Source: Escherichia coli
GTDB taxonomy: Bacteria > Pseudomonadota > Gammaproteobacteria > Enterobacterales > Enterobacteriaceae
NCBI RefSeq assembly: GCF_009931435.1
Contig: NZ_CP043414.1
DNA length: 64,000 nt
Direction: 5' to 3' (one strand)
In this document: piece after piece, positions 33,106 to 33,801 of the stretch
Position numbering within the stretch: the stretch's first letter is position 1
Layout: every line of letters begins with the position of its first letter
The notes under the pieces: model-generated
What the model saw: only the letters and a program-made list of their open reading frames with translations
The model's database searches: none
What the model was told of the DNA's origin: nothing
Translations under genes and position numbers: made by a program

Positions 33106-33801
33106 ATGATCTACTTACGCAAAGCAAATGAACGTGGTCATGCAAATCATGGCTGGCTGGACTCCTGACATACTTTCTCTTTTGCCAACTATTACGACCC
33201 GAACTTTATGGGCTTCTCCGCGCTGCGCGTGATTAACGACGACGTGATTGAAGCAGGGCAGGGCTTCGGCACTCACCCGCATAAAGATATGGAAATTTTG
33301 ACCTACGTGCTGGAAGGTACTGTTGAGCACCAGGACAGCATGGGCAATAAAGAGCAGGTTCCGGCGGGCGAGTTCCAGATTATGAGTGCGGGTACGGGTA
33401 TTCGTCACTCAGAGTACAACCCAAGCAGCACTGAGCGTCTGCACCTGTATCAGATCTGGATCATGCCAGAAGAAAACGGTATTACGCCGCGTTATGAACA
33501 GCGTCGCTTTGATGCCGTACAGGGTAAACAGCTGGTGCTCTCGCCGGATGCGCGAGATGGTTCATTGAAAGTGCATCAGGATATGGAGCTATACCGCTGG
33601 GCGCTGCTGAAAGATGAGCAGTCGGTGCATCAGATTGCCGCTGAACGCCGCGTCTGGATCCAGGTGGTGAAAGGCAATGTTACCATTAACGGCGTGAAAG
33701 CCTCGACCAGCGATGGTCTGGCAATCTGGGATGAGCAGGCAATCTCCATCCACGCTGACAGCGACAGCGAAGTGTTACTGTTCGATCTGCCGCCGGTTTA
33801 A
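33106..33801 (+). pseudogene. yhhW: yhhW (pirin-like quercetin 2,3-dioxygenase) interrupted by an in-frame TGA at codon 21
   Basis: From ATG 33106: [23 protein letters not shown](33166-33168)[21 protein letters not shown]...; the rest (to 33801) is an intact in-frame YhhW; track ORF restarts at internal ATG 33208. Confidence 0.8.

Follow-up and report, generated by a model that had tools for sequence, protein, structure and literature searches.

A very recent nonsense mutation at codon 21 probably makes yhhW a young pseudogene in a sub-clade of an uncommon Escherichia coli lineage

The codon-33 amber allele of rpoS in Escherichia coli K-12 is a known case in which translation re-initiates downstream of an early stop. 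There, one base change interrupts an otherwise intact, regulated gene; close relatives are polymorphic for it, and an in-frame start follows from which a functional product is made. Natural read-through of UGA has been measured in K-12 reporters and at the native nudL stop (PMC10570021, PMC11903333). It is set mainly by the competition between Trp-tRNA(Trp) and RF2; in K-12 reporters it amounts to ~2% at 37°C, rising to 4% at 25°C (PMC10570021). The tRNA-Trp wobble-pairs with UGA, and tryptophan is the main residue inserted there (PMC11903333). K-12 over-estimates read-through owing to the A246T defect of its RF2, and wild E. coli terminate better (PMC11903333). A C at position +4 makes termination at UGA notably inefficient (PMC5289835).

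YhhW is a pirin-family quercetinase (Adams & Jia 2005, cited in PMC5031710). Its gene belongs to the YhaJ regulon and is inducible by hydroquinone (PMC5031710). Strong induction of yhhW was also described in EHEC growing on radish sprouts (PMC4048457). In K-12 the gene lies between yhhX and gntR with a YhaJ box upstream, and the protein, known from the structures 1TQ5 and 6UTS, combines the domains Pirin and Pirin_C_2. The locus described here has the same location, the same domains and the same upstream box, and its product is 100% identical to K-12 YhhW after restoration of Trp21. In contrast to K-12, codon 21 is a stop, and the full-length enzyme is not encoded.

The window, that is the whole stretch of 64,000 nucleotides analyzed, carries the yhhW frame, annotated as yhhW in all references and encoding a pirin-family quercetin 2,3-dioxygenase broken at codon 21, on the plus strand at 33106..33801. 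Direct reading revealed an ATG at 33106, 20 sense codons, a TGA at 33166-33168 and then an open frame through the TAA at 33799-33801, so that an uninterrupted frame for the full YhhW does not exist. An earlier note on this DNA had claimed an in-frame TGA at codon 21 with the frame open to 33801, which is what was read. It had also proposed a TGG to TGA transition from Trp, and alignment bears this out. Codon 21 was TGG in 5/5 reference E. coli (BL21, K-12 MG1655, 2017-02-2CC, RMDEC465 and Z0117EC0005) and in sister assemblies, and this is the ancestral state of the premature stop. The base to inspect in a read pile-up had been given as 33167; the alignment puts the change at 33168, where G is replaced by A. 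Within the first 90 nt of yhhW this is the single difference from four annotated E. coli yhhW genes. The base after the stop is a C, giving the tetranucleotide UGA-C. Upstream of the stop remains an N-terminal ORF of 20 codons (33106..33165, plus strand, direct reading), which is preceded by a Shine-Dalgarno-like run, AGGGGG, at 33091-33096. The mutated base was the outer position of an ancestral Dcm site, CCTGG at 33164-33168, and the change destroys this site. A Dcm deamination hotspot was considered and rejected: the methylated inner C on the bottom strand pairs with G33167, and its deamination would give TAG.

Apart from codon 21, the gene is protein-identical to the common E. coli YhhW (WP_000639811.1). 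Comparison with BL21 revealed 22 differing sites, namely W21* and 21 synonymous changes, and comparison with K-12 revealed 17, namely W21* and 16 synonymous changes. No missense change was found in either comparison, so W21* is the sole amino-acid difference and the rest of yhhW is intact, as the note had held. A single defined substitution, set against a protein sequence that is unchanged everywhere else, cannot be put down to chance. Since the rest of the gene shows only synonymous differences, yhhW appears to have been under purifying selection until very recently. Over residues 1-231, the Trp-restored product showed 100% identity to 6UTS_A and 1TQ5_A, both solved structures. Its translation contained the Pirin domain PF02678 at residues 7-119 (E 2.8e-38) and Pirin_C_2, the C-terminal quercetinase cupin PF17954, at residues 143-228 (E 8.9e-30). 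By direct reading, H57, H59, H101 and E103, the residues described as metal ligands for 1TQ5, are all present in the frame. No NCBIfam model matched YhhW. An AlphaFold2 prediction without alignment gave a mean pLDDT of 41.8 and was set aside in favor of the solved structures available for the identical protein.

The regions around the gene were intact as well. The synteny yhhX-yhhW-gntR was shared with the references. On the plus strand at 33006..33018, that is -100..-88 from the ATG, lies a TCA-N7-TGA inverted repeat that matches, by motif and position, the box of the LysR-type regulator YhaJ. In the published analysis of this motif in the yhhW promoter a C at -99 was mutated (PMC5031710), and this base corresponds to 33007 of the window. 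The box is intact, and the whole promoter region is identical to that of an intact sister assembly. Just past the yhhW stop, folding predicted two strong hairpins at 33818-33843 and 33850-33883 on the plus strand. The pair (33818..33883) had a folding energy of -53.3 kcal/mol (z = -7.26), none of 200 shuffles was as stable, and the second hairpin is followed by UUUUG. Judged from this predicted fold, the pair between yhhW and gntR is likely a transcription terminator or a REP-like element. In a consensus scan neither a promoter nor a terminator was convincing, and the hairpins at 33818-33883 escaped it through its rules on loop length and T-run.

The nonsense allele was then compared with other genomes. 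A gene annotated 'yhhW: quercetin 2,3-dioxygenase' is present in 5,424 of the 5,426 complete E. coli genomes. When a 70-mer with the TGA, centered on codon 21, was compared with the complete genomes, 5,424 matched at 69/70 and none at 70/70. Among complete E. coli genomes, the TGA allele is either missing or, at most, exceedingly rare. This excludes the case that the earlier note had named as refuting its claim, a TGA that is the common allele of a gene with another annotated start. The exact 39-mer with the TGA likewise had no match in GTDB species-representative genomes or JGI metagenome contigs.

Relatives of the same haplotype were found by searching public assemblies with the exact YhhX protein of the window, which gave 36 index blocks, and 24 contigs were read. 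Contig VTMS01000037.1 of GCA_009899175.1, listed in two samples, matched the window at 100% across 21,038 bp, with the TGA among them, and no yhhW product is recorded for it. Three close sister assemblies carried the ancestral TGG and encode the 231-aa YhhW. Logan SRR23937428 differed from the window at 33168 alone in 12,046 bp, and the same held for GCA_035607835.1 in 2,738 bp. GCA_030511265.1 differed over 7,038 bp at 33168 and at one SNP in ggt. With a flank picked so that yhhW was the sole discriminating neighbor, 7 of the 24 lineage contigs were without a yhhW product and 17 had the 231-aa product; one of the seven was read directly and six were assigned by grouping. A count of 22/24 contigs without yhhW was discarded once yhhW was the sole discriminating neighbor (7/24). 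The six further contigs without a product have presumably inherited the TGA. From these alignments, the nonsense allele appears to mark a minority sub-clade, and the mutation would be very recent on this haplotype.

Other lineages carry lesions at the same place. The exact 197-aa product that would start at Met35 is recorded on 305 public contigs, and ten places were read. The same W21* TGA was found in an unrelated lineage, on a K-12/BL21-like haplotype, in the isolate GCA_900236045.1 and in the metagenome contig ERZ27241766. These two match each other except for a scaffold gap; against the window they show 15 differences in yhhW, and their flanks reach only 94-95% identity. The closest distinguishing sites are found 112 bp upstream and 30 bp downstream of 33168, which makes an independent mutation more parsimonious than a transfer. 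In codons 1-34 of yhhW only 13 single-base changes create a stop, four of them transitions at the two TGG codons, so that a recurrence of W21* is unsurprising. Judged from its presence in GCA_900236045.1 and ERZ27241766, the W21* change would be viable. The split of gntR in GCA_900236045.1 (4218-4251) is an N-run scaffold gap and not a mutation, and gntR is intact in ERZ27241766. In the remaining places read, the N-terminus was lost through start-codon loss or frameshifts. In GCA_900449325.1 (2899-2901) the start ATG is changed to ATT, and GCA_900450175.1, like the former an NCTC-type assembly, has a frameshift within the first 17 codons. Several of the yhhW frameshifts occur in assemblies with many broken neighbor genes and are probably assembly errors. 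All these public lesions, W21*, ATG to ATT and frameshifts, leave the same 197-aa ORF; the lineages differ and so, for the most part, do the lesions. Such sporadic, independent lesions suggest that yhhW may be dispensable under many conditions, although it is almost universally kept.

We also analyzed the surroundings within the window. The 54 other annotated genes over 298-62520 were compared with reference genomes, and all were full length without stops or frameshifts. The assembly is thus clean and the genome not rich in pseudogenes. No IS element was found in the window; with no other broken gene either, a pseudogene-rich (Shigella-like) genome was rejected. The 55 genes of the window end in TAA (38), TGA (14) and TAG (3). 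An altered genetic code was rejected as well, since UGA terminates 14/55 genes. Only 1/14 genuine TGA stops in the window is followed by a C, which is consistent with avoidance of the weak UGA-C. Over 36.6 kb of syntenic DNA the window shared 96.1% identity with K-12, and its best match among complete RefSeq genomes reached only 98.9%, which points to an uncommon, divergent lineage that is E. coli by its public label. In the stretch from 48.6 to 64 kb most complete E. coli genomes match at only 90-95%. The glgP-glpD interval (48745-51873) holds two genes for PstS-family phosphate-binding proteins and one hypothetical gene, where K-12 has only the pseudogene remnant yzgL. At the ggt-yhhY junction (31074-31122) the window is without the yrhB-yrhD-IS1-yrhA-tssD (Hcp) block carried by K-12 and BL21. 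Divergence from RMDEC465 over 298-48618 was mosaic by gene, with 0 differences in tusA, yhgN and asd, 4.3% in livF and 3.5% in ugpE. Such a gene-to-gene mosaic is expected from recombination.

Several explanations compete with a true loss of the gene. The earlier note had offered a sequencing error, and a base-calling or consensus error at 33168, in a strain that truly carries TGG and an intact yhhW, would leave sister assemblies that differ from the window at this base alone. Moreover, GCA_009899175.1, the sole directly read TGA contig of the haplotype, could be the source of the window itself. However, 54 neighboring genes over 62 kb without a frameshift or stop speak for a high-quality consensus, the TGA contig is listed for two samples with six more contigs grouped as lacking the product, and the identical W21* occurs in two independent datasets of another lineage. 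Real SNPs that separate close relatives are also far more common than substitution errors in a short-read consensus. We regard an error as unlikely. If the stop is real, translation might still re-initiate at Met35 and give a functional protein. The Met35 ATG at 33208 is the first in-frame start past the TGA, only 39 nt downstream, and the 197-aa ORF that begins there (33208..33801, plus strand, direct reading) is the only possible re-initiation product. It keeps H57, H59, H101 and E103, all of which lie downstream of Met35, and the rpoS allele of K-12 provides a precedent. In contrast to rpoS, however, no Shine-Dalgarno-like sequence is present in the 25 nt before 33208, and the missing segment belongs to the catalytic cupin barrel. 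The product would lose 28 of the 113 Pirin-aligned residues (7-34), including the GWL..(Y/H)TFSF block, which even the paralogue YhaK shares, and a beta-barrel without its first strands would be unlikely to fold. That the Met35 product would lack the first cupin strands had already been noted and fits the Pfam Pirin span of 7-119. A functional re-initiated protein is thus highly improbable. Programmed recoding, by selenocysteine insertion or a prfB-like +1 frameshift, draws on the fact that the tetranucleotide UGA-C is also found at the prfB frameshift site (PMC5289835). Against it, the 38 nt after the UGA were predicted to be unpaired, without a hairpin (z +0.58 versus shuffles), and a search of 32900-34100 gave no Rfam match, SECIS included, at E <= 1. 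The P-site codon is UCC and not the slippery CUU, an internal Shine-Dalgarno (AGGGGG, 3 nt upstream) is missing, and a shift would destroy the protein, since YhhW continues in frame 0. Close sisters as well as 5,424 genomes have TGG at codon 21, and the probability of recoding is negligible.

Low-level UGA read-through was the third option of the earlier note. The stop could thereby create a functional hypomorph, in which Trp-tRNA(Trp) reads through the UGA-C, restores Trp and yields enough YhhW to matter, with expression tuned down. The stop is the same and the near-cognate tRNA is the same as in the K-12 reporters (~2-4%, governed by Trp-tRNA(Trp) versus RF2; PMC10570021) and at nudL. Mainly Trp would be inserted by wobble pairing (PMC11903333), and the context is weak (PMC5289835). 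As Trp was the original residue, whatever protein read-through supplied would be authentic YhhW. However, the figures from K-12 are too high for the more efficient RF2 of wild strains (PMC11903333). The reporter and nudL read-through are measured events, whereas the TGA at yhhW codon 21 is a recent accident and not a conserved feature. An early stop is also expected to destabilize the mRNA or to cause Rho polarity through the lost coupling of translation and transcription. Given the over-estimate in K-12 and this expected loss of mRNA, at most a trace of YhhW is expected, with read-through of a few per cent at most cut down further. No stimulatory structure was predicted downstream of the UGA. 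Nor is the stop conserved among relatives, as it would be in programmed read-through: 0/5,424 genomes match the TGA 70-mer, the sisters have TGG, and so does the great majority of genomes. We therefore consider a hypomorph that matters to the cell unlikely. A bolder version makes W21* a selected 'dimmer switch', which would deliver a few per cent of authentic YhhW, more at low temperature or with abundant tRNA-Trp, and takes the recurrence in two lineages as a sign of selection. We hold this very unlikely; if true, it would mean that some niche selects for down-tuning a CO-releasing, flavonoid-degrading enzyme.

The reading we prefer, with a probability of roughly 0.87, is a real and very recent G to A loss-of-function mutation, which leaves yhhW as a young pseudogene in part of an uncommon E. 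coli lineage. Inactivation had been among the options raised at the outset, and it is the best supported of them by the TGA assembly without a yhhW product, the six contigs grouped alike and the sisters that differ here only. In this scenario, the G to A change at 33168 would have turned the Trp21 codon TGG into UGA in one sub-clade. Translation from the normal start would end after 20 residues, and essentially no full-length YhhW would be made. No further decay is seen: intact sisters have the same sequence in the promoter and its YhaJ box, in the ribosome-binding site, in the remaining coding sequence and in the putative terminator. The enzyme activity would be lost, and the loss would be neutral or near-neutral. 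It is plausible that near-cognate decoding of the weak UGA-C by Trp-tRNA(Trp) still supplies a trace of wild-type YhhW. Because UGA-C is leaky, the W21* allele may be a strong hypomorph instead of a null.

The allele is of a known kind, an ordinary young nonsense pseudogene present in only part of a single clonal lineage. It involves no new element or mechanism. For annotation, yhhW is to be marked as a pseudogene in this sub-clade. The 197-aa Met35 fragment has been deposited as 'quercetin 2,3-dioxygenase' and as 'pirin-related protein', and truncated yhhW calls are propagating as proteins. Records of this ORF should not carry the name 'quercetin 2,3-dioxygenase'. The TGG and TGA sisters form a natural near-isogenic pair, one base apart over at least 12 kb. 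This pair could be used to study the physiological role of YhhW, or the read-through of a Trp to UGA-C change in a wild RF2 background.
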